Positions 26,768 through 51,507 of a stretch of DNA of 64,000 nt are shown piece by piece. The DNA is from Rhodospirillales bacterium (lineage in GTDB: Bacteria; Pseudomonadota; Alphaproteobacteria; Rhodospirillales; UBA2165). The first letter of the stretch is position 1, and each line of letters begins with the position of its first letter. The notes beneath the pieces are model-generated. The model had not been told where the DNA came from. It did no database searches and saw only the letters and a list, made by a program, of their open reading frames with translations. The stretch is taken from the NCBI GenBank assembly GCA_028345065.1, contig JAOMCN010000006.1, positions 9,941-73,940 on the forward strand. Reading direction: 5' to 3'. Position numbers and translations under genes: made by a program.

Positions 26768-27241
26768 ATGACGACATTCACCTTATTAGTAAATGGGAAT
26801 AATCACTCGGTCGAGACGGATCCGGCAACACCCTTGATCTTTATACTAAGGAATCAACTCAACTATACCGGCCCGAAGCTGGGCTGTGGGCTCGAGACTT
26901 GTGGTGCATGCGCTGTACTTGTAGACGGCGAAGCTGAGCTCAGTTGCACCCGTGCCGCATCCGAATTTGAAGGCAAACAAATCACTACCATCGAAGGCTT
27001 AAGCTTAAACGGGAATCTCAGTGCAGTACAGCAAGCCTTTATGGATGAAGGGGCGGCACAGTGCGGATACTGCACACCCGGTATCATTATCGCAGTAACA
27101 GGTCTTATTTCCAAGACATCCAAACCGAGTAACAGTGAAATCAACGAAGCGCTCGAAAAACATCTATGCCGATGTGGATCGCACGCAAACGTTATTAAGG
27201 CGGTTAAACGTCTGACTGCAGGAGGGGGCAAAATTGACTAG
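26768..27241 (+). CDS. [2Fe-2S]-binding small subunit of a molybdenum hydroxylase (IorA/CoxS-like)
   Basis: GCGLETCGACAVLVDG...QCGYCTPGIII...LCRCGSH. Confidence 0.85.
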   Translation: MTTFTLLVNGNNHSVETDPATPLIFILRNQLNYTGPKLGCGLETCGACAVLVDGEAELSCTRAASEFEGKQITTIEGLSLNGNLSAVQQAFMDEGAAQCGYCTPGIIIAVTGLISKTSKPSNSEINEALEKHLCRCGSHANVIKAVKRLTAGGGKID

Positions 27242-29381
27242 TGCATCTCTGGAAAAGAGCCCCAATGTCGACGACTGGCTTACCATCTCATCGGATGATG
27301 TAATCACCATTCGCACTGGAAAGGTGGACATTGGACAGCGTATTTCAACGTCCTTAGCCATTGTCGCCGCCGAAGAATTAGATGTCGACTATGACCGCAT
27401 CCATGTCGAACGCACGCGGACTGGGGAAGCGCCCGATGAAGGTGTGACGGCGGGTAGCAATTCTATGGAACAGTCAGCCACCGCCATTCGTGCTGCCAGC
27501 GCTACCGCACGCCATCACATGCTCCTGCTTGCAGCAAAGGCGTTGGAAGTAGACGTGAATACTCTGGAAGTCTCTGATGGGCTAATCACATCCCGCGACA
27601 TTAATCGCTCGATTACCTATAGCGACTTAATGGAAGGGAAAGATTTTGGCATTGCTGTGGACACTAATGCCAAACTCAAGGTTCCCAGCGAACAGAATGT
27701 AGTGGGTACCAAAGTGGTGCCGAAAGGCTTAAACGAAATTGTAACCGGGAAATTTCAATACGTTCACGATATGACGATGGATGGCATGATGCATGCACGG
27801 GTGGTGCGTCCGCCGCACTATCATGCCCGCTTAAAGAACCTGGATAAAAACCAACTCAAAAAATTGCAGTTGGAAGGTGTAAAAACTATTATCGATGGTA
27901 GTTTTATTGCCGTTGCTCATGAAGATGAATATCGAGCAATTAAGGCTCGTGATCGGATGGCAGCAGCCGTCACCTGGGACCTAGCTGATGGCCTTCTGGT
28001 TAATGATCTTTATGAAGCCTTATTATCAAACCCGCGTGTTAGCCACCGGCTTGTCGATGGCGTACCAGATGATGAACCCATACCTAAACTGGGAAATCCG
28101 CCTGACGAAGCCACGAAAACAATAAGTGCACGATATGAAAAACCCTATATCATGCATGCTTCAGTGGCACCTTCAGCGGCATTCGCACTCGCGGAAGCCA
28201 CAAAAATCAAAATTTGGTGTCATAGCCAAGGGGTTTATATCTTAAGGGATAGTGCTGCCGAAGCGCTTGGAATGAACTCCGAAGATCTTGTCATTACACA
28301 CGTACCGGGACCAGGTTGTTACGGACATAACGGCGCGGATGACGTCGCCTTTGATGCCGCCCTGGTCGCACGTGCATTACCAGAAATACCCGTACTTCTG
28401 AAATGGACACGCGAAGACGAACACGCCTGGGAGCCTTATGGCTCAGCCATGGTTATGGAACTTCGGGGCAGTTTGAACAAACAAGGTGACGTCATCGAGT
28501 GGTCGCATGATACTTACAGTGACACCCACAGCATGCGACCCTTTCCCGGACCAAACGGCCTCGGTCCTGGTCGACTAATTGGTAGCCGCTATATGGATCC
28601 ATCAATTCCACCGACGCCTTCGCAACCGACGGGCGGCTCACACAATGGTAAGTTTCGTAATCAAGATCCACTCTACACTTTTCCGAACCGAAGGATCGTT
28701 AAGCACCTCGTAAAAGACCTACCACTCCGCTGTTCATCACTACGCGCGCTCGGAGGCTACGCAAATATCTTCGCTCTTGAGTCTTTTATGGACGAACTTT
28801 CGTTAGAAGCGAGCATGGATGCCGTTGATTACCGCCTGATGCACCTCTCAGATGTAAGGGCTAAAAATGTAATTGAAGCTGCTGCAGAGGCTTTTGGATG
28901 GCCTGGAAAAAATTCCGAGGGCGTCGGATGTGGCCTCGCATTTGGACAATACAAGAACATCAAGACTTATGCCGCCGTCGCCATTGAAGTAGAGGTTACC
29001 GATAACGCCGAAATTAAACTCCGGCGCGCCGTCATCGCCGCGGACGCGGGCCACGTGATTGATCCTGCGGGGCTCATCGTACAACTTGAGGGTGGTGTTA
29101 TTCAGGCAGCAAGTTGGACACTCTACGAGCAGGTCTTATACGACCGTGGGGGCATCACCAGCCGTGATTGGGATAGCTACCCAATTCTACGTTTTGGAAA
29201 CGTACCATCGATTAACACAATCCTTATGGAACGTCCCGGCGAACCTTTTTTGGGGGCTGGAGAAGCAACCACAGGACCAACTGCCGCAGCAATAGCCAAC
29301 GCCGTTTACCGTGCTACTGGGCTCAGACTTAGGCGACTTCCTCTAACGCCTGAAGCTGTAAAGTTAGCGGCATTAAACTAA
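27234..29381 (+). CDS. Molybdopterin-binding large subunit, aldehyde oxidase/xanthine dehydrogenase family (IorB-like)
   Basis: 715 aa: GKVDIGQRISTSLAIVAAEEL...GSNSMEQSATAIR...GAGEATTGPTAAAIANAV. The TTG start overlaps the small-subunit stop by 8 nt. No Tat signal is visible. Confidence 0.8.
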   Translation: MTSASLEKSPNVDDWLTISSDDVITIRTGKVDIGQRISTSLAIVAAEELDVDYDRIHVERTRTGEAPDEGVTAGSNSMEQSATAIRAASATARHHMLLLAAKALEVDVNTLEVSDGLITSRDINRSITYSDLMEGKDFGIAVDTNAKLKVPSEQNVVGTKVVPKGLNEIVTGKFQYVHDMTMDGMMHARVVRPPHYHARLKNLDKNQLKKLQLEGVKTIIDGSFIAVAHEDEYRAIKARDRMAAAVTWDLADGLLVNDLYEALLSNPRVSHRLVDGVPDDEPIPKLGNPPDEATKTISARYEKPYIMHASVAPSAAFALAEATKIKIWCHSQGVYILRDSAAEALGMNSEDLVITHVPGPGCYGHNGADDVAFDAALVARALPEIPVLLKWTREDEHAWEPYGSAMVMELRGSLNKQGDVIEWSHDTYSDTHSMRPFPGPNGLGPGRLIGSRYMDPSIPPTPSQPTGGSHNGKFRNQDPLYTFPNRRIVKHLVKDLPLRCSSLRALGGYANIFALESFMDELSLEASMDAVDYRLMHLSDVRAKNVIEAAAEAFGWPGKNSEGVGCGLAFGQYKNIKTYAAVAIEVEVTDNAEIKLRRAVIAADAGHVIDPAGLIVQLEGGVIQAASWTLYEQVLYDRGGITSRDWDSYPILRFGNVPSINTILMERPGEPFLGAGEATTGPTAAAIANAVYRATGLRLRRLPLTPEAVKLAALN

Positions 29382-33324: not shown

Positions 33325-33474
33325 AAAGATTAGAGCACGATATGGTGGCTGAGCGTTTGGAACTCACCTCCTGAGATCATACATAGACACCAAAGTTACT
33401 GTTTTTCTAATAACCGATAGAACTTTCTTTAAAGAAAAGGCTGTAACACCTACGAAACCAAGTTGGAAAATAAA

Positions 33475-34797
33475 ATGTTAGCGCGTGTTCATAAACTATT
33501 TTCTACTACCATTATTTCAGGGTTACTGGTTTGGGTGAACTCAGCACCAGTAGCTGCAGAATCTGTTGCTGAGTTCTATAAAGGTGGGTCAATCGTAATT
33601 CATATGGGATTTCCGGGGGGCGGATTCTTGGAATCAGCCAAGCTCGTTGGTAAACATATGCAAAAGCATATTCCAGGAAATCCTAAAATTATTTTTCAAG
33701 GTCGGCCAGGAAGACTCGGCACGGCAGTACTTGACTTCCTGGCATCACCTTGGGCACTTAAAGATGGTACGCATTTAGCAATGCCTGGTTCTCTTGGTCC
33801 TTGGATGCCACTCCAGACAAGTGTTCCAGTCAAGTACGATCCACTCCAAATGAACTACATAGGTAACGTTAATTCAGCTGGAGACACATTTCTGTTCGTC
33901 CGCCAAGATGTTAATATTAGAACCCTTTCAGACCTAGTTTCTAAACCACTTAAGGTTAGCAACTCTCGAGGTGCGTACAGGAATTTTGTTGCTGCGCTCA
34001 ATAACATCCTTGGAACCAAGATCACCTATGTTGGAGATTATCCGTCGCATCGTGATGCTTTTGCGGCAATGTTACGGGGAGAAACAGAAGGTGTAGCTGG
34101 AGCGGGCGTAACAGCTGGAGCAGAACACAGGCGCTATTTCCCATCTCTTCTCAAAGACCTAGAAGTTATACCGGTACTCCGATATACAGCCACCACAAAA
34201 AGTGTAGAATATCCGGGCGCCATTCTTGCCGGCATGGCGGGAACCACAGAGACTCAGAAACAGGCACTGGAGATTACCTTTGCCAGCCAGGTTTTGGATC
34301 GGCCTTTGATGGGGCCCCCAGGTATTCCCACACCTCGTTTAAAGGCGTTGCAGATCGCTTTCATGAAGGCGATGCAAGATCCAGAACTAATTGTTGAAGC
34401 CCAAGAAAAAAAGTTGGGAATAAAAGACCCTATGAGCGGACCCAACATGAAAAAATATGTGAAAACAATTTATGCCCTCCCTGAAACGGCAAAGGCCATG
34501 ACCAGAAAGGCACTAGCAGATAAGAGCTTTCTCCAACCTGTTCGCTATACGACTTTCAACGCCGAACTGTTTAAAGTCACGAAGGACGGTCGTAGCCTGA
34601 ATGCCAATTTGACGTTTAAAGACACAAAGAAAACCATCATCGTTCGGTTGGATGCGAGAACAACAAGCGTTTCAGCCTACGGTAACCAAATCAAACCGCC
34701 GCCCCTCAAAGCCGGCTCTTTAGAACCAGGTATGAAGTGTAATGTCTCCTGGACTGGCCCCAAGACAACTGCCAGTGCCTTGGTATGCAAAAAATAA
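33475..34797 (+). CDS. Periplasmic Bug/TctC-like solute-binding protein with a roughly 110-aa C-terminal extension
   Basis: Signal-like MLARVHKLFSTTIISGLLVWVNSAPVAA, then IVIHMGFPGGGFLESAKLVGKHMQKHIPGNPKIIFQGRPGRLGT...DGTHL, which follows the Bug pattern. I chose the ATG at 33475 over the TTG at 33463. Confidence 0.5.
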   Translation: MLARVHKLFSTTIISGLLVWVNSAPVAAESVAEFYKGGSIVIHMGFPGGGFLESAKLVGKHMQKHIPGNPKIIFQGRPGRLGTAVLDFLASPWALKDGTHLAMPGSLGPWMPLQTSVPVKYDPLQMNYIGNVNSAGDTFLFVRQDVNIRTLSDLVSKPLKVSNSRGAYRNFVAALNNILGTKITYVGDYPSHRDAFAAMLRGETEGVAGAGVTAGAEHRRYFPSLLKDLEVIPVLRYTATTKSVEYPGAILAGMAGTTETQKQALEITFASQVLDRPLMGPPGIPTPRLKALQIAFMKAMQDPELIVEAQEKKLGIKDPMSGPNMKKYVKTIYALPETAKAMTRKALADKSFLQPVRYTTFNAELFKVTKDGRSLNANLTFKDTKKTIIVRLDARTTSVSAYGNQIKPPPLKAGSLEPGMKCNVSWTGPKTTASALVCKK

Positions 34798-35233: not shown

Positions 35234-35821
35234 TCAAACCGGCGGCTTCCAGTTTTTCAAGCCAATACTATCTGCTACTCTTTGACGCCATTGGTTAATA
35301 GGCTCTGCTGTCGGATATTGATGAACTATCTCCCTTGTCCGCTCAATGATTTCTTCATCTGTAAGATTGAAATCAAGCTCATCACGGAACGGCTGACCAA
35401 CATACCAATCAGTATCAACATATAGCTCGACACGGTTGCCTTCTGGATCTTTAAAATAAACACTCCATGCATTGCCATGGGTTAGAGAATACATCTCACT
35501 AATATCGGGCTCAATTTTGAGAACATCCCAAAAAGTTCGAAGGTCAGCCAATGATTCTACGAGGAACGAGATCTGGTTAATCACGTTGAATGGAATACCA
35601 TCGGGTTTTCCACCAATCAGGACCAATTGATGATGGACCATCGGATCACGGGTTAGAAAAATCAGTTCAGCCTTCAGATCGTGGCCATCAATTCGTCCTT
35701 CATCTGAGCGATGCATTTTAAAAAGTCGCTGGTAAAAATCCCCCATTCTTTCCAAATCTTTGACCCAAAATCCAAAATGAGTGAAACGAACGGTAGGAAT
35801 AGAATTTGAATTGTCTGTCAA
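35234..35821 (-). CDS. VOC (glyoxalase/extradiol dioxygenase) family protein
   Basis: FTHFGFWVKDLERMGDFY...HHQLVLI...THGNAWSVYFKDPEGNRVELY. Confidence 0.7.
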   Translation of the reverse strand: MTDNSNSIPTVRFTHFGFWVKDLERMGDFYQRLFKMHRSDEGRIDGHDLKAELIFLTRDPMVHHQLVLIGGKPDGIPFNVINQISFLVESLADLRTFWDVLKIEPDISEMYSLTHGNAWSVYFKDPEGNRVELYVDTDWYVGQPFRDELDFNLTDEEIIERTREIVHQYPTAEPINQWRQRVADSIGLKNWKPPV

Positions 35822-36115: not shown

Positions 36116-37024
36116 ATGTTTGGATCTTTGGAAAATTTCACCCAAGGACTGGCTACTCGCGTTGGTGTCAAACCAGGTAATTTTGTCGGGGTGTGCTTGG
36201 CATTGTTATCAAGTTTATCTCTCATGCTAAATGGTGCTATCGGCAAACTTTTGGCCCCCGAGTTACACCCATTCCTTATCATCTTCTTTCGATCAGCAAT
36301 AATTACATTAATCTTGTTTCCTTGGTTTACTCGGAATGGCTATGATCGCATTCGTCCAACCCGACACTGGGAACAATTCTTGAATGGTTTGGTCTTCACA
36401 TTAGCCATAGTTGGCTGGTTTTGGGCCTTACCTCGCACACCGCTCGACATGGTCGCAGCCATAGGTTTTACCAGCCAGCTTTATGCTATAATTGGTGCCA
36501 TGCTTTTCCTCGGTGAAAAGCCTAGGCTTTGGAGGTGGATTGCACTCTTTGTAGGCCTTTTCGGCGCAGTGATTATAGTAAGACCGGGGTTCATCGAACT
36601 TACACCTGGTATCATGGTACTTTTGGCAACCGCAATCTTGTTCTCGACGAATAGACTGGTCATTAAAGTCATAGCCACAAAAGATAACCCGGAAACATCA
36701 GTCGTGTGGATGGCATTTTGGGCAACGGTTCTTACCACCCCTTTAGCGGTTCTCTATTGGAAAATACCTGATTTTATGCAAATTTTTCTCCTCGTCTCCA
36801 TCGCTTTATTGACAATTGTGACCCATTATAGTTTGGCGTGGGCTCTGAAACTTGGTGATATCGGAGCCATTGAACCGACCATCTTTATGCGATTGGTTTG
36901 GGGAGTTATTTTAGGATATTTCCTATTCCAAGATATTCCTGATTTTTTCACTATATTTGGCGGATTGATCGTATTTGGCTCAATCATCTATATTGCCCGA
37001 CGTGAGCGTCAAGAAGACAATTAG
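36116..37024 (+). CDS. DMT superfamily (EamA-type) transporter
   Basis: About 10 hydrophobic helices with duplicated EamA-like halves. Confidence 0.7.
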   Translation: MFGSLENFTQGLATRVGVKPGNFVGVCLALLSSLSLMLNGAIGKLLAPELHPFLIIFFRSAIITLILFPWFTRNGYDRIRPTRHWEQFLNGLVFTLAIVGWFWALPRTPLDMVAAIGFTSQLYAIIGAMLFLGEKPRLWRWIALFVGLFGAVIIVRPGFIELTPGIMVLLATAILFSTNRLVIKVIATKDNPETSVVWMAFWATVLTTPLAVLYWKIPDFMQIFLLVSIALLTIVTHYSLAWALKLGDIGAIEPTIFMRLVWGVILGYFLFQDIPDFFTIFGGLIVFGSIIYIARRERQEDN

Positions 37025-38272: not shown

Positions 38273-39517
38273 TTACGATACAGTCACAGGAAGAAGAGCT
38301 AATCCCCTAAACCGGGCTCTTCCATGAAAACGTTTTTTGCCATTTGGGCGCAAATTTGGAAACCGTTTAACAAATTTTCCTATTGCGGTATGGCCTTCTA
38401 TTCGGCCAAGCGTGTTCCCCATACAAATATGCCTACCCATACCAAAAGCTATTTGAGGATTTGGCTTGCGACCGATATTCACGGTTTCAGGATCTTCGAA
38501 AATCTCGGGATCGCGATTTGCCGCACCAACACACGTGTGTATGAATGAACCGGCGGGGATTGTTTTCCGATTATCTTCTGGCCCAAATACTACGTCCGCC
38601 GTTGCCTTTCTGTTTCCAATCTGAAGAGGGCTTTGAAAGCGGAGAAACTCCTCAACCGCCGTCTTGATAAGGTCAGGGTTCTCCCGCAAGCGTTGAAGTT
38701 GATCCGGAAATTCAAGTAAAGTACCAATACCGTTACTAACGAGGCTTGCAGTCGTTTCATGCCCGGCGTTTAATAGGAATATACAATTTTGCACCAACTC
38801 AACCGGACTAAGTTTGCGACCATCTACTTCCCCAAAAATTAGAGAGACTAAAACCTCACCCATTTCTGCACCATGGGGAGTTTCTCGACGTTTAGCGATC
38901 AATTCTTCCAATAACTCCCCAAATTCAATTACAGCCTCATGCCCAGCCTTAAGCTTTTCGGGAGAAACAATTGGATCAAGTGCACCAAGAATTAAAGTCG
39001 AATAGTGATGCATCTTGCTCCGATACTGCTCCGGAACGCCAAGCATGTCTGCAATGATTTCGGTGGGCAGAGCCAAACCATAGTCATGAACTACATCAAA
39101 TTCCTTTAACTCTTTAAGACGATCAAGTAATCGCTCAACAATACCCTCTATAACCGGGTCGAGCTCATCCATTTTTCTTGGTGTAAACGCTTCCGACATA
39201 AGCTTACGAACGCGAGCGTGGTACGGGTCGTCATTAAACACCAAGCTAGTCGTGTGATGCAGATATAAAGGCCCATTGCCGAATTTTGGCTTGAAGTCTA
39301 CCCGCTTATCCGAGCTCATTGCCGGATCTCTAAATGCCTTAACGACATCCTCATACCGTGTCAGAAAATAGGTGCCGTCAGGATTTAGATGCACGGGATC
39401 ATGTTCCCTCAATAATTTATACGTCGGAAACGGATCGTCGAGAAATTCCTGGTCAATACTCTGAATATCAAACGCCAGGGCCTGTTCGTGATCCGATGGA
39501 GGTACACTCATTTTCAT
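38273..39517 (-). CDS. Cytochrome P450 monooxygenase
   Basis: LLNAGHETTA (I-helix), EEFLRF (ExxR), FGMGRHICMGNTLG (heme Cys ligand loop). Confidence 0.9.
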   Translation of the reverse strand: MKMSVPPSDHEQALAFDIQSIDQEFLDDPFPTYKLLREHDPVHLNPDGTYFLTRYEDVVKAFRDPAMSSDKRVDFKPKFGNGPLYLHHTTSLVFNDDPYHARVRKLMSEAFTPRKMDELDPVIEGIVERLLDRLKELKEFDVVHDYGLALPTEIIADMLGVPEQYRSKMHHYSTLILGALDPIVSPEKLKAGHEAVIEFGELLEELIAKRRETPHGAEMGEVLVSLIFGEVDGRKLSPVELVQNCIFLLNAGHETTASLVSNGIGTLLEFPDQLQRLRENPDLIKTAVEEFLRFQSPLQIGNRKATADVVFGPEDNRKTIPAGSFIHTCVGAANRDPEIFEDPETVNIGRKPNPQIAFGMGRHICMGNTLGRIEGHTAIGKFVKRFPNLRPNGKKRFHGRARFRGLALLPVTVS

Positions 39518-39575: not shown

Positions 39576-42500
39576 TTACTTCGCGGGTTCTAATTCTCTC
39601 ATTCTTTCCCCTTTATTGTTCTTTGCATTTTCTGAATTCTTTACCAATTCAGCTTCACCAGTCCACAATTCCACCTGAACAAGCGCAGCACTACTACCCA
39701 TGGAGTGAGCTTGTTTGATCTGGCTGCGCTTCGGCGTTAGCTGGTTGAGACAGCCCCCCCGGTCAACTGAATTTCCGGGCTCACCGATAGGCTCATAGGT
39801 TGCACATGATTCATAGCCATGCACCAAGCCACGACACAATCTTTCGGTTGGAAATGCCGCACAAATAACGGCACCGCGGCCATTATAAACTTTAACCAAA
39901 TCTCTCATTTTTATATTACGATCAACCGCATCTTCGGCATTTATTCTAAGTGTCCAGTAATAGTGACCATCAACCATCATTCGATGATCAACGATGTCAT
40001 TAATAAATGCATCTTTACCGTCACCCTGACTATGGTAGCTAAACCGCGCGTGCGGTGTAATCATTTGCAGTGGGTATTTTTTTGTAAGCTCAGTCGCCCC
40101 GGGACCTTCCCATGAGGGGGTATATTTAACTATAGGGGGACGTTCTGGGTCATTGGCGTCAAATCGTTTTAAGCTATTACATTCGAATTCAATCTTTCCA
40201 GACTGCGTCTGCAGACCTTTAAGAAATTCTTCGGTATAATCTGCAGGTAAGGGGTGAGGTTCAGGCACATCTTTTTTGCGGCCTTCGGCAAACCACCTAA
40301 AAGATACAGGCTGTCTAAGCTCCTCTCTTAAAGGAGGAACAACAAAGTAACCTTTACGGATAAACTTATTCCAAGAAATATGTTTTGGTAAATCAGAAGC
40401 ATTAAATTGTCGTTTTACCCAATCTAACTCGCTCATACCTTCAGAAAACAATAGACCCAAACCTAACCTTTGAGCTAATTCTAAAAATATCTGATAGTCC
40501 GATTTCGACTCCCCTAAGGGTTCAATGCATTTGTGCTGAAAGACGATAACTCGGTGATTTAGCTGGTTTTGACCGTGATGAGTATACCCCCCTATGCCGG
40601 CCCACTCACTTATGTCCGGACGCTCCAGATTAGTACACGCTGGCAATATTATATCCGCAAATTTTGCATCACCTTCGAACCAGATTGATTGATTGACGAC
40701 AAATTCTAAATTGTCCGTTCGATACATTTTTACGTAACGATTTGTGTCACTCATAGTACCAAACATCGAGCCACCGTATTTATAGAGCATCTTTACTGGT
40801 GCATGACCCCGTTTTGGATATACAATTTTGTTAAACTGCCCTTCGATGGTTTTCCCGTCCCAGGCATATCCTTCAGCCTTACCCTCAAGAATTGCCTCAG
40901 GGAGTTGAAGACGCGGAATTTTCTGCGAACTGGTGTTCACGGTAGGTAATTGTGGCATGCGTTGATAAAGAGCCACCGACAATGCCGTCCCTTGAAGATC
41001 CCCAGACATCCCGCCGTCCGCATATCCCGGAAAATAGAAGTTGAGATCTATCGGTGTGGCCCGCTGTAGATTACCGAGGTTTATTCCCGGCTTACCAATA
41101 CCTTGCATAGCCATCAAACAGATCATCGTCCGAGCCCATTGGATGCCAGTAGAATTACGACACGCACCCCCATACCCATTTCCAGCTCCACCGGCCGATA
41201 AATATACTTTTTTTCTTCCCCATTCACGTGCTAATGCTCTAACATCTTTAGCTGGCACACCAGTCTCTACTTCTTGCCAATCAGGGGTTTTAGGGATCCC
41301 ATCCTCTACTCCCAGAATATAGTCTTTCCAGACCTCGAAGCCGACCGTTCGATCAGAGACATAATCCTTGTCATAGAGGTTCTCAGTGATCCAAACATAA
41401 GCGATAGACAGTGCTAAAGCCGGGTCAGTTGTGGGTTTCGGAGCCAACCACTTTCCACCCAACATTTGCGCAGTATCGTTATAATGTGGATCAATATGGA
41501 CAAACTTAATATCAAGTTGTTTAAGCCATTGGCGACGGATTGATCCCTCTTGTGACGCATAATTACCGCTTGTTGATTCCGGGTTAGAAGACCAAAAAAC
41601 TACCATTTCACAGTGTTTTAGAAGATCCTCGACTGTTCCGTAATTCTCTGACATACCAACCCTCATGGAATGCCCCCAATGGTGTAATCCACCCCAATAC
41701 CAACCCTCCCAACTGTCGGGATTATGGTGTACTTCGGTGTGGCCAATCAAATTCATAAAACGGAAGTTTGCCGAGAGGTAATAACCGATATTACCCCAAG
41801 TATGATGGGAACCATGGCTTGAAGCGATAGCCCCTGTCCCATAGTCACGCTTTGTGCGCTGTATTTCTCCAGAGACAATATCGAGTGCCTCATCCCAACT
41901 AATTCGTTCATAATCAGAAATGCCGCGATTGTTGCAATTGCGTTTTCCATTGGGGTCAAAATCAACTCGCTTCATCGGATATAAAATACGATCAGGTGAA
42001 TAGATTGCTGATTTCCAGTTCTGACCATGCGGCGATAGTGTTGTTTTTCTGGGTGGCGTAAATTTTTTCCCGCGGGCTTTGACAGTCCAAGTACCTGGAT
42101 CGTCGTCATCAAATTCTATGGTTGTAGTACGAACGATTTTTCCATTTTTTACGTAAACGAAAATTGGCCCCCCATTGGTCATGCTCGTATAACGCTTCGA
42201 GCCGTCCGGTGCCAAAACGCCATATTTCCAATGAAGGTTTTGTGTCAGCATTATTGTTTGAGCAAACCAGTAGGTAAGTTCATCAGGGCCTGTCATTGTC
42301 AGATTAAATTCTTTTTGAGCATCAATTTGATTTTGATAGTCAACCGGCGGCATCAGTAGTTGAGCTGCAATTTCAGCAGATTTGAATGACATACAAATTT
42401 CTGGTGACTGATGAATAACTGCTTGGGAAGAAACTTTACCGTCATGAAATGAAAAAAAACGGCCGGAGGAATCGTCAGCAATTTTGATCTGAGCAACAAA

Positions 42501-42596
42501 ATTTTTCTCTTTGAGGCGCGCTCTAAAAACAGGATTTCGCCAAGCCGTATACCTCAACAGCCAACTCAACCCCAAGAGAATTAACGAAAATTTCAT
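39576..42596 (-). CDS. DMSO-reductase-family molybdoenzyme resembling the large subunit of pyrogallol-phloroglucinol transhydroxylase (AthL-like), with an extra N-terminal domain of about 130 aa
   Basis: From [17 protein letters not shown] onward the protein tracks my memory of AthL: ...KFTPPRKT...[12 protein letters not shown]...[15 protein letters not shown]...[11 protein letters not shown]...[12 protein letters not shown]...VVFWSSNPE...[13 protein letters not shown]...DRGGCLN. The N-terminus is [19 protein letters not shown] plus an SCP2-like segment. Confidence 0.75.
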
Positions 42597-42611: not shown

Positions 42612-43916
42612 TTATGCCGCCGGGACAATAACGGATCGGCATTCACCGAAGCCGATACGAGCCTTACCATCACCATCGCACCACGCCCGCATGACAACCT
42701 CATCACCATCCTCAAGGAAGGTCCTCTCTTCATCACCCGGAAATAAGATGGTTTCCTTACCTCCTTTACAGGCTTCAAGAATACTGCCGTATGTATCTGG
42801 TGTTGTCCCTGAGATGGTGCCGCTTCCATAAAGGTCACCCGGATTGAGATCACATCCATTGCTGGAATGGTGTGCCAACATTTGAAAGACACTCCAATAC
42901 ATGCCCTTAAAGTTTGGAGCGCCAATGACATGAGGCAAATCACCATTTTTCCTCATTTTGTCAGTAAGAACCGCAACTTGAATGTTTATATCGAGCCCGC
43001 CGGAACCTTCGTGGGACTTGGTGTGGAGATATGGTAATGGTGCCGGATCACCTTTTGGGCGTTTAAATATTGCTGATCTGTAGGGCGCCAAGGCTTCCAA
43101 AGTTACAATCCATGGAGAAATGGTTGAAGAAAAATTTTTAGCCATAAATGGACCCAGAGGTTGGTATTCCCAAGTCTGGATATCTCTCGCTGACCAATCA
43201 TTCAGTATACAAAGACCGAAAACGTGATCTTCCGCTTCTTCCAACGGAATAGCGGAACCAAGCATGTTCCCCGGACCTACAAATACCCCCAATTCTGTCT
43301 CATAATCCAGTCTTCGACAGGCATCAAAATTTGGTGTTTCAGCATCAGGGCCTTTTAACTGGCCTGCTGGCCGTTTAGTCGGCGTACCACTGACACGGAT
43401 AGAGGATGAACGTCCGTGATAGGCAATAGGTACATACTTGTAATTCGGCAACAATGGATTATCAGGTCTAAACATCCGCCCTACGTTCGTTGCATGGTTT
43501 ATGGAAGAATAAAAATCTGTAAAATCCCCAATTCGGGCCGGTACTGTCATTTCGGCGTCGGCCATAGGTACTAAACATGTACGACCCTCTTTTTCATTAC
43601 CTCCTGACCTCAACAGTTTGGAAAGTTGATCGCGCAAACTGACCCAATGCTCGCGACCCAATCCCATTAATGTATTTAGAGTTGATTCCTTACATGCCGC
43701 CGCCGCGTCACCCTTTAAATATCCGGCATCAAATGCCTTACCAACGTCCAGTATTTGGTTCCCGATCGCGACCCCGCCACGGTACTCTCCACTTGAACCT
43801 GCGTTACGAAAAACCCCCATGGGTAAATTTTGGATAGGAAAGTCACTGCCAATTTCGTTTGCCGAAGGTACCCAACTAGTGAGTTTAGGATCATGCGTAT
43901 CATTAAGTGAGGTCAT
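42612..43916 (-). CDS. fahA: Fumarylacetoacetase
   Basis: SWVPSANEIGSDFPIQNLPMGVF...IGDFTDFYSS...YHGRSSSI...ETELGVFVG; 434 aa. Confidence 0.9.
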   Translation of the reverse strand: MTSLNDTHDPKLTSWVPSANEIGSDFPIQNLPMGVFRNAGSSGEYRGGVAIGNQILDVGKAFDAGYLKGDAAAACKESTLNTLMGLGREHWVSLRDQLSKLLRSGGNEKEGRTCLVPMADAEMTVPARIGDFTDFYSSINHATNVGRMFRPDNPLLPNYKYVPIAYHGRSSSIRVSGTPTKRPAGQLKGPDAETPNFDACRRLDYETELGVFVGPGNMLGSAIPLEEAEDHVFGLCILNDWSARDIQTWEYQPLGPFMAKNFSSTISPWIVTLEALAPYRSAIFKRPKGDPAPLPYLHTKSHEGSGGLDINIQVAVLTDKMRKNGDLPHVIGAPNFKGMYWSVFQMLAHHSSNGCDLNPGDLYGSGTISGTTPDTYGSILEACKGGKETILFPGDEERTFLEDGDEVVMRAWCDGDGKARIGFGECRSVIVPAA

Positions 43917-45224
43917 TTATAAATTTCCATTGAAGTGTTTTTTAAGTCCTTGCCAGCACTCAGAATAATCACTTTGAAGTGCCGGAGTTTCTAAAGCAAA
44001 TTTTGTCGGCCTGTAGAGATATCTTGTCTCAAACATGAAAGCCATCGAACCGTCGAGATATATTGGTTCCTGCTCAGCTTGACTAGCCGCTTCAAAAACG
44101 TCGGCGTCATTGCCATGAGGCGACATACAATTGTGGAGACTGCTACCACCAGGAACAAAGCCTTCCTTACGACCGTCATACTGACCCTTTATAAGCCCCA
44201 TATACTCGCTCATGATATTCCGATGATACCATGGTGGCCGGTAAGTATCTTTAGCCACGACCCATCGAGGTGGAAATATTACAAAGTCTACATTGGCAAC
44301 CCCCTCGGTATCACTTGGTGAAGTCAACACTGTGTAAATACTTGGGTCAATATGATCAAAGCTCACGGTACTAATTACGTTGAAATTGGCTAAGTCATAT
44401 TTATAGGGCGTATAATTGCCATGCCATGCGACAACGTCCAACGGCGAATGTCCAATATCAGCGTCCCACAGGTTCCCGCCAAACTTTGTAGTCAGTTTGA
44501 ATTGCCCTTCTCGTTCCTCGAAGCTCGCGACAGGCGCAAGAAAATCTCTAGGATTAGCTAAACCATTAGAACCAATAGTCCCCAAATTGGGTAGACGCAT
44601 AGGGACACCATAATTTTCCAGTACATATCCTCGCGAAGACCCGTCCGGTAATTCGGCACGATATTTGACGCCACGTGGTATTACAGCAATTTCATTAGGT
44701 CCAATTTCAACTATACCCATCTCTGTCAGCAATTTTATTCGACCTTGCTGCGGTACAAAAAGCATCTCCCCATCTGCATTGTAAAAATAGCGGTTATCCA
44801 TAGATGAATTGGCAGTATAAATGTGGACGGCCAAGCCACTTATACCAACCTCACCAGCCCCCATAAGCGTCACCAGGCCTTCAATGAGGTCTGTAGGTTT
44901 TGTCGGAATAGGCAGTGGATCCCATCGCATTTGATTAGGGGTCGCCGGCATCTCGTCGAATGGTGCACTCCTCAGCAGACCATTAGAAACCTGCTGGAAT
45001 GGTAGATGTTTGACAGATGGACGCATTCGGTAGAACCAAGTTCTCAGATTTTGATCCCGGGGTGCCGTAAACGCGGTACCACTCAAGTGCTCCGCATAGA
45101 GGCCATAAGCAACCTTTTGCGGCGAGTTTTGTCCTTTAGGAAGGGCGCCAGGTAGAGCCTCGCTCGCAAATTCGTTTCCAAATCCGCTTTGGTAATCAGC
45201 CGTGACCAACAGGGTCGCATCCAT
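43917..45224 (-). CDS. hmgA: Homogentisate 1,2-dioxygenase
   Basis: [46 protein letters not shown]...[14 protein letters not shown]...HNCMSPHG. Its stop abuts the fahA start. Confidence 0.92.
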
Positions 45225-45296: not shown

Positions 45297-45758
45297 ATGA
45301 CCAAAATTTCGTCACCCGAAGAGAATACTTTACTGCTGCACGATTTTCTCCCATATCGTCTCGCCGTGCTCGCCAAAGTCGTAGGTATATCCCTATCAAA
45401 AATTTACAGGAAAAAATTTGGCATCACCAATCAGCAGTGGCGTGTAATATTTGCTCTCGCTCGCCAAGCCAATTGTTCAGCATCTCACATTGTTCATCAC
45501 GCCGCCCTCGACAAGGTACAAGTCAGCAGAGCAGTAGCTGGCCTGATTGAGAAGAAATTGCTTGAACGCAGTGCAGACAATATCGACCGAAGAAACTCAA
45601 TACTCAATTTGACAATCGAGGGATGGAAAGTCTACGACCAGATTGCGCCTGAAGCTGTGGCTTTCGAAGCCAGCCTTAAAGGTTCCTTAGATGAACGGGA
45701 AGTTGCAGAACTTGATACGCTCTTATCAAAGCTAATGGACAAGGCTACAAATCTTTAG
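45297..45758 (+). CDS. MarR family transcriptional regulator
   Basis: 153 aa with a winged-HTH pattern: ITNQQWRVIFALAR..NCSASHIVHHAALDKVQVSRAVAGLIEKKLLER..D..DRR. Confidence 0.85.
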   Translation: MTKISSPEENTLLLHDFLPYRLAVLAKVVGISLSKIYRKKFGITNQQWRVIFALARQANCSASHIVHHAALDKVQVSRAVAGLIEKKLLERSADNIDRRNSILNLTIEGWKVYDQIAPEAVAFEASLKGSLDEREVAELDTLLSKLMDKATNL

Positions 45759-45764
45759 CCATGC

Positions 45765-46664
45765 TTAGACTATCAATAAGACCATAATACCGCCAACAAT
45801 GAGGACAGTACCTAAAATTTCATACGAGGTTATTTTTTCTCTAAAGATCAACGTCGAAGTCAAAAAGGTAAAAATCAACTCAACCTGTCCCACGGCCCTG
45901 ACGTAAGCAGCATTTTGTAATGTCATGGCTGTGAACCAGCCCACTGAACCTAACATGCTAGCTAAACCCACAAGGGCGCCTTTGCCTTTATTTTGCCAAA
46001 CCTTCGTCAACTCACCTTTCTCACAATAATAAAGATAGGCCGTCAACACCACGGTTTGGATGATGAGCGCCGCCAATAATGTTGCCGAAGCGGCCAAAAG
46101 GGCACTTTCGCCACCAAGCGAGAGAGAGGCTCCCCGATAGGAGACGGCAGAAATACCCAAAAACACACCATTGGCTAGGCCCATCAGGGCCCCCTTATTA
46201 GTCCAGGACAATAGAAACTCACGTGGGTTAACAGTCATTTTAGCAAGTGACAGAAAACACACCCCGATGAAACTGATAAGAATAGCAACGAAAGTGATAC
46301 CCGTTACTGCTTCTCCCAGTATAAGTATTGTGAATATGGCGGTTTGGAAGGTTTCTGTTTTTGAGTATGCAGTTCCAACAGCAAAACTTTTTAAGGCAAA
46401 GGAACGTAATAAAAACCACATCGCCAACACTTGCGCGACACCTCCCAAGGCAGCATAACCTACAAATACAATTCCCCAATCCAGGGGTTGAGTGTCATAT
46501 GAGCGAAGTAAAATCCAGTAGAGAGCTGCTAGTGGGAGCCCAAATACGAAGCGTGTATAGGCAGCACCAGATGTCGATAAGACACTGTTAATCGACTTCT
46601 GAAGAGAATTTCGCAGGTTCTGCAAGAAGGCAGCAGCGAGGGAGAATAGAAGCCATGCTTCCAC
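45765..46664 (-). CDS. DMT superfamily (EamA-like) membrane transporter
   Basis: 299 aa, about 10 hydrophobic helices, two-fold internal pattern. Confidence 0.6.
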   Translation of the reverse strand: MEAWLLFSLAAAFLQNLRNSLQKSINSVLSTSGAAYTRFVFGLPLAALYWILLRSYDTQPLDWGIVFVGYAALGGVAQVLAMWFLLRSFALKSFAVGTAYSKTETFQTAIFTILILGEAVTGITFVAILISFIGVCFLSLAKMTVNPREFLLSWTNKGALMGLANGVFLGISAVSYRGASLSLGGESALLAASATLLAALIIQTVVLTAYLYYCEKGELTKVWQNKGKGALVGLASMLGSVGWFTAMTLQNAAYVRAVGQVELIFTFLTSTLIFREKITSYEILGTVLIVGGIMVLLIV

Positions 46665-47028: not shown

Positions 47029-48021
47029 ATGCTTGGTGGATTTTTGGCCCTACTAGCAGCGGCCACCTTTGGTCTCAATGCCGTCGCCACTCGCCGGGGG
47101 GTGCTGACGGGCACCGTAGCTCAAGGGCTAGCAATCACAGTTCCAATTGCCGTTCCTATTTTTTTTGTAGTTGGTTTAACGACAGATAGTTTAGGTATCC
47201 TAAGTGAATTACCTGTTAAATCGCTCTTACTTCTAGGCATAGCTGGGGTAACCCATTTTATTGTTGGCCGCTATGCCAATTATCGTGCAACCAAGGCCAT
47301 GGGGGCCAATTTGGTTGGGCCTGTGGTCTCGTCTAGCTTGGTCCTCACACTTATCCTCGCAATTATATTTCTTGATGAAGTTATGACACCATTACGCGTT
47401 GTGGGTATAGTTCTCATCGCTCTCGGCCCCACCTTAATGCTTCGTTCACCGGCAATTGCAAAAAAAACACAACAAAGCGTAAGCAAAATTGCTTTCACAC
47501 CGAGGTTGATCGAAGGGTATGCATTTGGAATTATTTGTGCGATTGCGTTTGGCACCACCCCCATCTTCATACGATCCGCTTTTCTTGAATTAGGAGAGGC
47601 AACTGTAGGCCACGGGATAGTTGGAGGACTGCTATCCTATGTCGTTGCCACCGCATTCCTAGGACTTTATCTTTTGAAACCTGGTAATTTACGGCACGCG
47701 TTGTCGATTGATAGAAACGCCAGCAAATGGTTCTTACTAACCGGATTATTTGTATGTGTTTCTCAAATGTTGCGTTTTATGGCGCTGGCGATCGCGCCAG
47801 TATCAGTAGTCGCCCCCATAATCCAAACATCGGGTATTTTTCGCACCATCTTTGGCTGGTTCATTAACCGGAAGCATGAGGTGTTTGACGCCTGGGTTCT
47901 TCTTGGAGTTGCCGTGACCATCGTGGGCACTACGACCTTGACCATTAGCACGGAAATAGTGATTACAGTTATTGATCCACCACAATATATTTCTGAGTTT
48001 CTGAGATGGCATTGGCCCTAG
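47029..48021 (+). CDS. DMT superfamily (EamA-like) membrane transporter
   Basis: 330 aa polytopic membrane protein; GIAGVTHFIVGRYANYRATK and LIFLDEVMTP resemble EamA motifs. Confidence 0.6.
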   Translation: MLGGFLALLAAATFGLNAVATRRGVLTGTVAQGLAITVPIAVPIFFVVGLTTDSLGILSELPVKSLLLLGIAGVTHFIVGRYANYRATKAMGANLVGPVVSSSLVLTLILAIIFLDEVMTPLRVVGIVLIALGPTLMLRSPAIAKKTQQSVSKIAFTPRLIEGYAFGIICAIAFGTTPIFIRSAFLELGEATVGHGIVGGLLSYVVATAFLGLYLLKPGNLRHALSIDRNASKWFLLTGLFVCVSQMLRFMALAIAPVSVVAPIIQTSGIFRTIFGWFINRKHEVFDAWVLLGVAVTIVGTTTLTISTEIVITVIDPPQYISEFLRWHWP

Positions 48022-49519: not shown

Positions 49520-51000
49520 CGAGCATCCTTGCTCAGATAGGAAGGTTTAGTGTGAAAACTGACCAACTTTTCTAGTACATCCGCTACACAAAATAGCGTT
49601 TCTTCATCAAACGGCTTAGTGATGAGGTGAAGACCTAAAGGCAATCCCTCATTAGAAAGGCCCGCCGGCACGGTAATAGCGGGTAACCCCGCAAGGCTGG
49701 ATGGCACCGTAAACACATCATTGATATACATTTGTACGGGATCATCCATTTTTTCACCAATCGCAAAGGCCGCAAATGGTGTCGTCGGTGTCAGTATTGC
49801 ATCGACTTTTTTAAAGGCATCACTAAAATCCTTGAGTATAAGGGTTCGTAGTTTCTGCGCCTTAACGTAATATGCATCATAATAACCCGCACTCAGTACG
49901 TAGGCACCTATCATAATTCGACGACGCACTTCCTGTCCGAACCCTTCACCTCGCGTGGTCTCATACATTTCATCTAATGTCTCAGCATCAACCCTCAGGC
50001 CGTAGCGCACCCCGTCATAACGAGCAAGATTGGAAGATGCCTCCGCCGGCGCCACAATATAATAGGTTGGTAAGGCATATTTGGTGTGAGGCAGTGATAC
50101 TTCCAAAGGTTCAGCACCCGCGTCCTTTAGCATCTCCACTCCCTGAGACCAAAGCCCTTCTATCTCACTAGACATGCCATCGATCCTGTATTCAGAAGGT
50201 ATGCCTATCTTTAGACCTTTAATTTCACCAGTGATAGATGCCTCAAAATTCGGGACGGGCTCTGTACTGGACGTCGAATCCTTAGAATCATGGCCGGCCA
50301 TGGCCTGCAACATTATGGCGGCATCTCGAACTGTACGTGTCAGAGGACCTGCCTGGTCTAGACTTGATGCGAAAGCCACCATACCCCAACGAGAGCAACG
50401 TCCATAAGTAGGCTTCATTCCAACGACACCGCAGAATGAGGCTGGTTGTCGGATAGATCCACCTGTATCCGAGCCAGCAGCGCCGAGGGAAATATTAGCG
50501 GCAACGGCCGCTGCAGAGCCGCCCGACGAACCTCCCGGCACGCGATCCTTTCCATCGTTTACATACCAAGGATTTTTGACGGCACCGTAGAAGCTAGTAA
50601 CATTGGCAGATCCCATAGCAAACTCATCCATATTGGTCTTGCCGAGCATAACAGAACCTGCATCCCGCAAATTCTGAGAGACAGTCGACTCATATGGCGG
50701 GATAAAGCCGTCGAGAATATGTGATGAAGCCGTCGTTAACACACCTTCCGTGCAAAAAAGATCTTTGACTGCAATTGGAATGCCATCCATTCCTCCGGCA
50801 GGCTTGCCTTTCGCTCGACGTTCATCGGAAGCCTTTGCTCGTTCGATGGCTAAATCTAGGGTTTCAGTAACAAAGGCATTCAAGTCACGAGCAGCCTCCA
50901 CCGCTTTGATATGGACATCAGTAAGTTCCACAGACGAAAATTTTCCGTCACCCAATCCATCCCGAGCTTCCGCAATTGTAAGGTCGGTCAATTTACTCAT
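49516..51000 (-). CDS. gatA: Asp-tRNA(Asn)/Glu-tRNA(Gln) amidotransferase subunit A
   Basis: Amidase signature [13 protein letters not shown]...[16 protein letters not shown]. It overlaps gatB by 4 nt. Confidence 0.93.
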
Positions 51001-51287
51001 TATTCAACAACCTTCGGAACAGTGTAGAACGGCCCTTCCGGGTCCGGCGCATTAGAAAGCACGCGATCCGGATAATTGCCATCGGTGACCTTATCCGCTC
51101 GCTTGGGCATAACCATTTCAGCCATACTTGTCATGGGGGTTACATTTTCTGTGTCCACCTCATTCAATTGCTCTATCCATTCTATAATTTTAGAAAGTTC
51201 TTCAGCCAAAGTTGGCACTTCATTTTCAGGCACTTTAATTCGTGCCAACTTTGCAATTTTTCTGACTGTTGCTTCGTCTAAGACCAT
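51000..51287 (-). CDS. gatC: Asp-tRNA(Asn)/Glu-tRNA(Gln) amidotransferase subunit C
   Basis: [24 protein letters not shown]...[16 protein letters not shown]. The ATG at 51287 gives the usual length of about 95 aa; the track ORF is over-extended. Confidence 0.85.
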
Positions 51288-51507
51288 TTCTGATAACTTT
51301 TCAAAATTTTTTCTGGGTTGTTCATTTGGTATCCCTGCCGCGCAAACTAATAGAAAATCATTAAGCCTGAAAGAGGTCAAATCATAAATTGGCTGATTAT
51401 GTTGACTTGAATTTTTGAGACTGAAGAGTCTACGCACTGGCCGTAAAATCGCTATAATATATTAGGTTTGTCACTCATTTTTCATGTATTTTGGCGGAGA
51501 ATTTTTC

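Follow-up and report, generated by a model that had tools for sequence, protein, structure and literature searches.

A long-form AthL/RhL-family molybdoenzyme with an N-terminal SCP2-fold domain in a P450-containing homogentisate operon of a marine alphaproteobacterium

Introduction

Molybdoenzymes of the AthL/RhL type carry out the textbook anaerobic, O2-independent chemistry of phenols, and to our knowledge only two or three members of this family have been studied so far. AthL transfers a hydroxyl group in the para position, and the activity of resorcinol hydroxylase is associated with the membrane. Resorcinol hydroxylase hydroxylates its substrate para to a phenolic OH, and in a published table AthL and RhL are both given as cytoplasmic members of the same RhL/PgtL family. 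Here a 64,000-nucleotide stretch of the Rhodospirillales bacterium assembly GCA_028345065.1 (contig JAOMCN010000006.1), called the window throughout, was analyzed around a gene for a large relative of these enzymes, referred to below as the Mo enzyme. Its N-terminal extension had been pointed out in an initial annotation made from the sequence alone. We find that the protein belongs to an apparently undescribed SCP2-fused long-form clade of the family, and within it to a lineage of marine Alphaproteobacteria in which the gene lacks an adjacent beta-subunit gene, is paired with a cytochrome P450 gene and lies in an aerobic homogentisate operon.

Results

The catalytic body

Three Pfam domains were assigned to the Mo enzyme, all above their gathering scores: PF21423 (the AhtL-like first domain, residues 143-196), PF00384 (203-709) and PF01568 (843-962). 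Residues 135-981 aligned with residues 6-870 of AthL (4v4c_A), the best solved relative, with E 8.5e-303, and a Foldseek search with the full-length model led to the same chain (E 5.6e-86, 51% identity). The body thus starts near residues 135-143, in agreement with the initial annotation, which had placed this boundary at about residue 140. Its two further observations, the lack of a twin-arginine motif and of an N-terminal Cys cluster, were also borne out: no RR motif occurs in residues 1-60, and C68 and C221 are the only cysteines in residues 1-260. The short-form N-termini of the AthL/RhL type are MGEVVRLTNSSTGGPVFV-like, begin about 12 residues ahead of GGPVFV and likewise carry no Tat (twin-arginine translocation) motif. 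The absence of both a Tat signal and a Cys cluster is therefore the norm for the AthL/RhL family and not special to this protein. By these features the Mo enzyme is predicted to be a cytoplasmic bis-molybdopterin guanine dinucleotide (bis-MGD) enzyme of the AthL/RhL branch of the DMSO-reductase (MopB) superfamily. The models for TorA, DorA and BisC-type enzymes scored it far below their cut-offs (338 bits against 1018 for bisC_fam, and 262-270 bits against 909-1465 for TorA). A Tat-exported S/N-oxide reductase of the DorA/TorA/BisC kind was rejected on these low scores together with the missing RR motif. Because of the same scores, the name "TMAO (trimethylamine N-oxide) reductase" carried by relatives has to be regarded as a mis-annotation, and many database names of this family, either that one or "anaerobic dehydrogenase", are wrong.

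The residues presumed to act in catalysis are kept. Ser175 of AthL, which we take to be the molybdenum ligand, sits in the motif HNPDSWEGW, and its counterpart in the window is S295. The other residues that we assume to be catalytic in AthL, His144, Asp174, Tyr404 and Tyr560, correspond to H264, D294, Y525 and Y671. All five, as well as Trp176, are invariant in 241 short-form and long-form sequences. The ligand had initially been assigned to the Ser of the motif GSHHTWGN. That residue corresponds to Ser143 of AthL, beside His144, and the equivalent of the presumed ligand is instead S295 in NPDSWEG, although both serines are retained. AthL Arg153 is replaced by Tyr in every long form (Tyr273 in the window), and AthL Trp354 corresponds to Tyr475. 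Given the invariance of the catalytic residues in the 241 sequences and the exchange of Arg153 for Tyr in the long forms, the enzyme should be catalytically competent, with a pocket unlike that of AthL.

The N-terminal domain

About 134 residues precede the catalytic body, and this extra region, already recognized in the initial annotation, is conserved in every close relative. Several observations bear on whether it is translated. The ATG sits 15 nt past the stop codon of fahA, and more than 20 homologous N-termini (48-91% identity) start at the same MKFS/MRFS site or a few residues upstream. The ratio of nonsynonymous to synonymous substitution rates (dN/dS), taken against a 97%-identical orthologue in L001, is 0.13 for residues 1-135 and 0.09 for the body. 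A start downstream of the extension had been named in the initial annotation as one of two findings that would refute its reading. Such a start, at M139, was rejected because of the conserved start in the homologues, the 15-nt gap to fahA, the dN/dS value of 0.13 and the confident fold described below. By these comparative measures the upstream start is genuine and the N-terminal domain evolves under purifying selection.

In the AlphaFold2 (AF2) model, residues 1-120 consist of helices at 2-20 (a1) and 22-28 (a1'), four strands between residues 33 and 71, two helices between 74 and 95, a strand at 99-102 and a final helix at 105-120. The predicted local distance difference test (pLDDT) value for this part is about 90 when the whole protein is modelled and has a mean of 86 when the domain is modelled alone. 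When the domain model was compared with the PDB by Foldseek, the first 39 matches all had the SCP2 fold, with E values down to 2e-6 and a probability of 1.00. The best of them was UbiJ-SCP2 (6h6o, 6h6p; E 2e-6, TM-score 0.6-0.69, about 119 of 135 residues aligned). The others included AF1534, the SCP2-like C-terminal domains of alkylsulfatases (2cfu, 4axh) and SCP2 proteins from human, rabbit, yeast and insects. At the level of sequence the relationship is faint. Pfam gave no match at E<=1 for residues 1-140 of the window protein, and no SCP2 protein came up when PDB sequences were searched with a profile of the N-terminal domain. Of 23 homologous N-termini, however, four matched the Pfam SCP2 family (PF02036, best E 3.3e-4) and one weakly matched Alkyl_sulf_C (0.19). 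The model, the fold search and the Pfam matches of the homologues thus agree with the SCP2-type domain proposed in the initial annotation, and neither the profiles nor the predicted structure pointed to a different fold. According to the model, residues 1-120 form one SCP2-fold domain.

One detail of the earlier description has to be changed. It had placed a separate hydrophobic element ahead of the SCP2 region, but in the model this hydrophobic start is helix 1 (residues 2-20) of the SCP2 fold itself and no membrane anchor. Its Kyte-Doolittle maximum over 19 residues is 1.03, against the classical transmembrane threshold of 1.6 for a window of this length. A transmembrane anchor or a Sec/Tat signal at residues 1-19 was rejected on this value, on the missing RR and on the position of the helix within the fold. 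Of the alternatives "cytoplasmic or membrane-associated" offered initially, the first is therefore retained (no Tat signal), whereas a membrane anchor is not (no transmembrane helix).

By analogy with UbiJ, the domain most likely holds a quinone or another lipid. It could also be a domain without any ligand, serving as a structural cap or as an oligomerization or assembly module that, for example, replaces contacts with a chaperone for insertion of the molybdenum cofactor (Moco). The many polar residues among its invariant positions (R27, Q36, D41, R46, K72, Q90, K95) would suit a protein-protein interface, and the window sequence itself reaches no Pfam SCP2 score. Nevertheless, the hydrophobic core and the positions lining the tunnel are conserved too, and the fold matches ligand-binding SCP2 proteins along its whole length, which makes a ligand-free module distinctly unlikely in our view.

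Distribution of the fusion

How widespread the fusion is, a point raised in the initial annotation, could be answered with a hidden Markov model (HMM) of the N-terminal domain. It was matched by the Mo enzyme itself and by all of its 120 best relatives (121 of 121 proteins). These relatives are 66-97% identical, 972-1027 aa long and belong to Alphaproteobacteria, Arenicellales, Gemmatimonas and others. In contrast, none of the 120 best relatives of AthL matched it; these are 61-96% identical to AthL, 826-933 aa long and derived from Clostridiales, Peptococcaceae, Deltaproteobacteria and Thermoleophilia. A neighbor-joining tree separated the long from the short forms, with the long forms, whose taxa also include Gammaproteobacteria, being monophyletic. 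An exhaustive phmmer search with the N-terminal domain over 1.84 billion representatives gave 394 matches, and the 150 of these that were listed showed no other architecture for the domain, as all look like N-terminal pieces of the same family. Fusion with the SCP2 domain is, as far as these sequences tell, a rule for the whole clade and not a peculiarity of the window gene. Text searches of the literature found no paper mentioning an SCP2-molybdoenzyme architecture, and no link of SCP2 or homogentisate to pyrogallol hydroxytransferase.

On one 34-kb contig the SCP2 domain was called as a separate protein of 132 aa (P0007) with an abrupt end (…GITL-RMV). This protein may represent a gene copy that was split or frameshifted, or a domain that stands alone.

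The beta subunit

In eight distinct relatives (64-73% identity; L002, L003, L004, L005/6, L007-9, L014, L017 and L018) a gene of the BthL type lies directly 3' of the alpha gene. It starts -4 to +44 nt from the alpha stop codon and encodes an iron-sulfur (FeS) protein of about 280-300 aa with Fer4_11 and CarboxypepD_reg domains; subunits of the BthL type hold three [4Fe-4S] clusters. No conserved third gene, for a membrane anchor, follows it in these eight relatives. In the window this slot is occupied by the P450 gene. The initial annotation had noted that no BthL-type gene is adjacent, and tblastn extended this to the whole 64 kb, where no BthL homologue was found. The same combination, beta absent and P450 present, was seen in L001, L010-L013, L015, L016 and L019-L024. 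Judged from these contigs, the subclade of the window has lost the adjacent FeS beta gene. Of the earlier view of a single-subunit enzyme, what is borne out is the lack of a beta gene within the 64 kb; a copy may lie elsewhere in the genome, and the SCP2-fused relatives mostly have a beta subunit. Since most of them carry the downstream BthL-type gene, the SCP2 domain and the single-subunit state are separate features.

The proteins of the beta-less group were compared with 110 beta-containing long forms, and positions conserved in at least 90% of the latter were taken as diagnostic. Nine substitutions are common to all 11 beta-less proteins: A303G, Q315M, A348S, T352S, W471A/G, H475Y, W512R, G513A/S and Y716L. 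None of the nine falls into the SCP2 domain. Columns 471 and 475 are A,Y in the beta-less, P450-linked proteins but W,H in the beta-containing long forms and L351,W354 in AthL, where this motif presumably lines the active site. The subclade of the window thus has substitutions of its own in what is probably the pocket of the active site.

These results bear on a simple alternative, namely that the Mo enzyme is an ordinary alpha-beta enzyme of the long form whose BthL-type FeS subunit is encoded elsewhere in the genome, the P450 being a mere neighbor from the pathway. The eight beta-containing relatives would then show the ancestral state. The small number of diagnostic substitutions leaves no obvious erosion of the subunit interface, and the genome was seen over 64 kb only. 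We nevertheless consider this rather unlikely, because on 13 independent contigs, of two synteny types, beta is missing from an otherwise invariant slot 0-44 nt behind alpha while the P450 is present, and because the window holds no BthL homologue.

The homogentisate operon and the cytochrome P450

The features of the MarR-controlled operon and of the Mo enzyme are collected in Table 1. The products of hmgA and fahA both score above the NCBIfam equivalog cut-offs. The order MarR / hmgA-fahA-Mo-P450 without beta was found in the window and in L001, L010/11, L012/13, L015 and L020, with the MarR gene in the equal position in L001, L010-L013, L015 and L020. In L012 and L015 the P450 gene begins 11-12 nt after the Mo gene, which is exactly the place of the beta gene elsewhere. 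P450 orthologues at 71-97% identity always adjoin the Mo gene. When metagenomes were searched starting from the P450, six of six loci with a P450 at least 73% identical had the Mo gene directly ahead of the P450 gene. L016 shows a second arrangement, in which the Mo enzyme is 74% and the P450 56% identical, the P450 gene is divergent and again no beta gene is present. The P450 comes without an accompanying gene for a ferredoxin or a reductase. The locus is part of an ordinary chromosome, with genes for GatCAB, ribonucleotide reductase and sulfite reductase nearby, and the synteny GatCAB-EamA-MarR-hmgA is common to the window and L015.

Table 1. Positions of the Mo enzyme, its parts and the neighboring operon genes in the window
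Feature	Position	Strand	Evidence
Long-form AthL/RhL-family bis-MGD molybdoenzyme, 1006 aa	39576..42596	-	Open reading frame (ORF), Pfam, AthL alignment, Foldseek
N-terminal SCP2-fold domain (predicted), residues 1-120	42237..42596	-	AF2 model, Foldseek, Pfam of homologues, dN/dS
Linker between SCP2 domain and catalytic body, residues 121-134	42195..42236	-	pLDDT 52-65 (domain-only model); AthL alignment begins at 135
AhtL-like first domain without FeS-binding Cys cluster, residues 143-196	42009..42170	-	PF21423, E 5.4e-25
Ser295 codon, equivalent of AthL Ser175, NPDSWEG motif	41712..41714	-	Translation; counting in AthL alignments
Residues 471-475 (AGNGY), A471 + Y475 signature	41172..41186	-	Group-specific column analysis
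Cytochrome P450 (CYP107-like), 58 nt downstream of Mo gene	38273..39517	-	PF00067; closest PDB chains
Fumarylacetoacetase (fahA)	42612..43916	-	TIGR01266, 539 bits vs cut-off 375; Pfam
Homogentisate 1,2-dioxygenase (hmgA), first operon gene	43917..45224	-	TIGR01015, 668 bits vs cut-off 511; Pfam
MarR-family regulator, divergent	45297..45758	+	PF12802, PF01047; weakly HpaR-like (TIGR02337, E 7e-14, under cut-off)

The class of substrate is suggested by a more distant cluster. In L025 (3929-14390) a P450 homologue of 45% identity lies in a MarR / hmgA - FAA-hydrolase - P450 cluster, and the P450 gene is followed by genes for a thioesterase of the FlK type, an unrelated 916-aa Mo-bisPGD oxidoreductase, a 4Fe-4S subunit, a 315-aa protein of no family and a PaaK-like phenylacetate-CoA ligase. 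The presence of the PaaK-like ligase points to arylacetates as the substrate class. The arrangement resembles that of phenylacetyl-CoA:acceptor oxidoreductase (PadBCD-like). Molybdoenzymes appear to have been recruited to the hmgA/P450 cluster twice, from different families.

The closest PDB chains of the window P450 are P450 BioI, vitamin D3 (25-)hydroxylase and CYP125. All of these act on hydrophobic substrates, as would be expected if, as suggested in the initial annotation, the SCP2 domain bound a prenylated or long-chain phenol and presented it to the Mo site. SCP2 domains do bind lipids, alkylsulfatases hold alkyl chains with one (2cfu, 4axh), and genes of the beta-oxidation type occur near some relatives. 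The domain is, however, equally conserved where the context indicates small polar phenols (gallate-decarboxylase-type LpdD/UbiD genes, extradiol dioxygenases), and with none of the nine clade-diagnostic changes it does not follow a change of substrate. As it is conserved in clusters for small polar phenols and unchanged while the pocket changes, presentation of a hydrophobic substrate fits less well, and we think it unlikely.

A bolder proposal is that the function of the FeS beta subunit has been taken over by the P450. In this scheme the Mo enzyme would hydroxylate a phenol with water and pass the two electrons to the P450, either directly or via an SCP2-bound quinol, although such a replacement strikes us as highly improbable. 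The P450 would then use O2 for a second hydroxylation, and the pair would make up an NAD(P)H-independent double hydroxylase, converting for example phenylacetate and O2 to homogentisate, an outcome that we judge just as far-fetched. The proposal is prompted by the position of the P450 gene in the beta slot, by the pairing of the Mo enzyme and the P450 in two arrangements, and by the lack of a ferredoxin or reductase gene.

Further genes lie around the operon in the window or in related loci. In L010 (11079-12404) and also in L011 (7681-9006) the Mo and P450 genes are separated by an inserted UbiD-family decarboxylase gene, which lies on the other strand, and genes for an LpdD chaperone and a URO-D protein are found near a beta-containing relative (L007, L009). 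These neighbors are hints of a decarboxylation of aromatic acids upstream of these Mo enzymes. Three EamA-family transporter genes flank the operon in the window, at 36116-37024 (+), 45765-46664 (-) and 47029-48021 (+). The EamA gene beside MarR is also conserved in L012 and L015 and may encode an importer or exporter of the pathway substrate. A small protein of the glyoxalase/VOC fold (127-195 aa) is encoded near the operon in the window (35234-35821, -), L010 (3570-3953) and L015 (12311-12817), the copy of the window being weakly similar to the C-terminal half of HpaD (3,4-dihydroxyphenylacetate 2,3-dioxygenase). In L016, beside the divergent P450 gene, lies a gene (1114-2577, -) for a Pro/Ala-rich protein of 487 aa that matches no family and ends with about 45 Ser-Gln repeats.

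Other genes of the window

No Moco-biosynthesis genes were found among the ORFs of the window that were scanned. The window codes for one more molybdoenzyme, which is unrelated to the first and belongs to the xanthine-dehydrogenase family. It is encoded at 26768-29381 (+) by genes for a [2Fe-2S] small subunit of 157 aa and then a MoCoBD protein of 715 aa, in which the order of the Pfam domains looks permuted, with MoCoBD_2 ahead of the hammerhead domain and MoCoBD_1. This locus is flanked by genes for a class II aldolase and a TRAP DctP binding protein. A 444-aa ORF without Pfam or NCBIfam match is located at 33463-34797 (+), a few kb away from the operon, with a class-V aminotransferase gene on one side and the gene of the small glyoxalase-fold protein on the other. 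The GatC ORF at 51000-51437 (-) is listed with 145 aa. Its true start probably lies downstream, because the Pfam GatC match is limited to residues 70-140 and GatC of L015 has 96 aa.

Discussion

In the reading that we favor, and to which we give an even chance as a whole, the Mo enzyme transfers ring hydroxyls independently of O2 and cooperates with the P450 in supplying homogentisate, and its SCP2 domain serves as a handle for a quinone or lipid. The hydroxyl transfer to a phenolic ring would need no O2 and would proceed either by water-dependent para-hydroxylation as in resorcinol hydroxylase or by redox-neutral transhydroxylation as in AthL. Its substrate would be an arylacetate-type phenol, made or later modified by the neighboring P450. 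The two enzymes would each install or move one ring hydroxyl to yield homogentisate for HmgA and FahA, and the para chemistry known from the family would convert 2- or 3-hydroxyphenylacetate to homogentisate. With no FeS chain, one of three things would have to hold: the reaction is redox-neutral as with AthL, the enzyme is re-oxidized directly by a quinone, or the beta subunit is encoded elsewhere.

The SCP2 domain would hold a membrane quinone or another lipid and so give a soluble enzyme, which has no membrane-anchor subunit, access to the electron acceptor. Access to membrane quinones is suggested by the best structural match, UbiJ, a binder of quinone intermediates, by the occurrence of long forms in respiring bacteria and of short forms in fermenters, and by the lack of an anchor gene in the long-form operons. 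A quinone handle would in turn account for this division into long and short forms.

Several points weigh against the favored reading. The quinone idea is drawn from the likeness to UbiJ, at 16-19% identity, and from a correlation with taxa, and a long form is also present in a metagenome-assembled genome of Desulfobacteraceae (L003). The catalytic body is poorly modelled in the full-length AF2 prediction (mean pLDDT 69). The metabolic logic is incomplete, since no gene for 4-hydroxyphenylpyruvate dioxygenase (HPPD) or maleylacetoacetate isomerase was found near the operon or among the window ORFs scanned. Finally, a beta gene may lie in a part of the genome beyond the 64 kb. With only nine positions setting the beta-less clade apart from its beta-containing relatives, the beta-binding surface may well persist.

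Apart from the mechanism, the results describe a large and apparently undescribed clade of SCP2-carrying long forms in respiring Proteobacteria and others. One marine alphaproteobacterial lineage of this clade dropped the adjacent FeS gene and joined the Mo enzyme and a P450 to the aerobic homogentisate pathway. Should the SCP2 domain be a quinone handle, this would explain how enzymes without an anchor reach the respiratory chain. If the pair of Mo enzyme and P450 makes homogentisate, abundant ocean bacteria would possess a new entry to a central aromatic pathway.

The enzyme can be compared with three known systems. With the SCP2 domains of UbiJ/UbiT (6h6o, 6h6p), its closest structural match, the N-terminal domain shares the N-terminal hydrophobic helix that belongs to the fold. 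The two are only 16-19% identical, and UbiJ/UbiT are stand-alone or otherwise fused accessory proteins of ubiquinone biosynthesis, whereas the fusion partner in the window protein is a molybdoenzyme.

With AthL/BthL (PgtL) of Pelobacter acidigallici (4v4c) it shares the three domains of the catalytic body, about half of the residues, the equivalents of Ser175, His144, Asp174, Tyr404 and Tyr560, the predicted cytoplasmic location, and the lack of a Tat signal and of the FS0 Cys cluster. However, AthL and its 120 nearest relatives have no SCP2 domain, and the AthL residues Arg153 and Trp354 are Tyr273 and Tyr475 in the window protein. The partner of AthL is an adjacently encoded FeS beta subunit and its host is a fermenting anaerobe, while the window gene has no adjacent beta gene and stands among genes for O2-dependent enzymes, HmgA and the P450. 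Y273, Y475, the long form and the hmgA-fahA-P450 context do not agree with a pyrogallol-phloroglucinol transhydroxylase sensu stricto (EC 1.97.1.2), whose reaction moves a hydroxyl from one phenol to another and uses 1,2,3,5-tetrahydroxybenzene as co-substrate.

The third comparison is with resorcinol hydroxylase RhLS/RehLS of Aromatoleum/Azoarcus anaerobius and the 3,5-dihydroxybenzoate hydroxylase DbhLS of Thauera aromatica AR-1. These are alpha-beta enzymes of anaerobic pathways, whereas the enzyme of the window is encoded without an adjacent beta gene in an aerobic homogentisate operon. They nevertheless belong to the same RhL/PgtL family, and long-form relatives from Magnetospirillum and other taxa of the denitrifier type look like the RhLS/DbhLS kind. 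In their respiring proteobacterial hosts they use water to hydroxylate the ring para to a phenolic OH, and this is the chemistry that we propose for the Mo enzyme.

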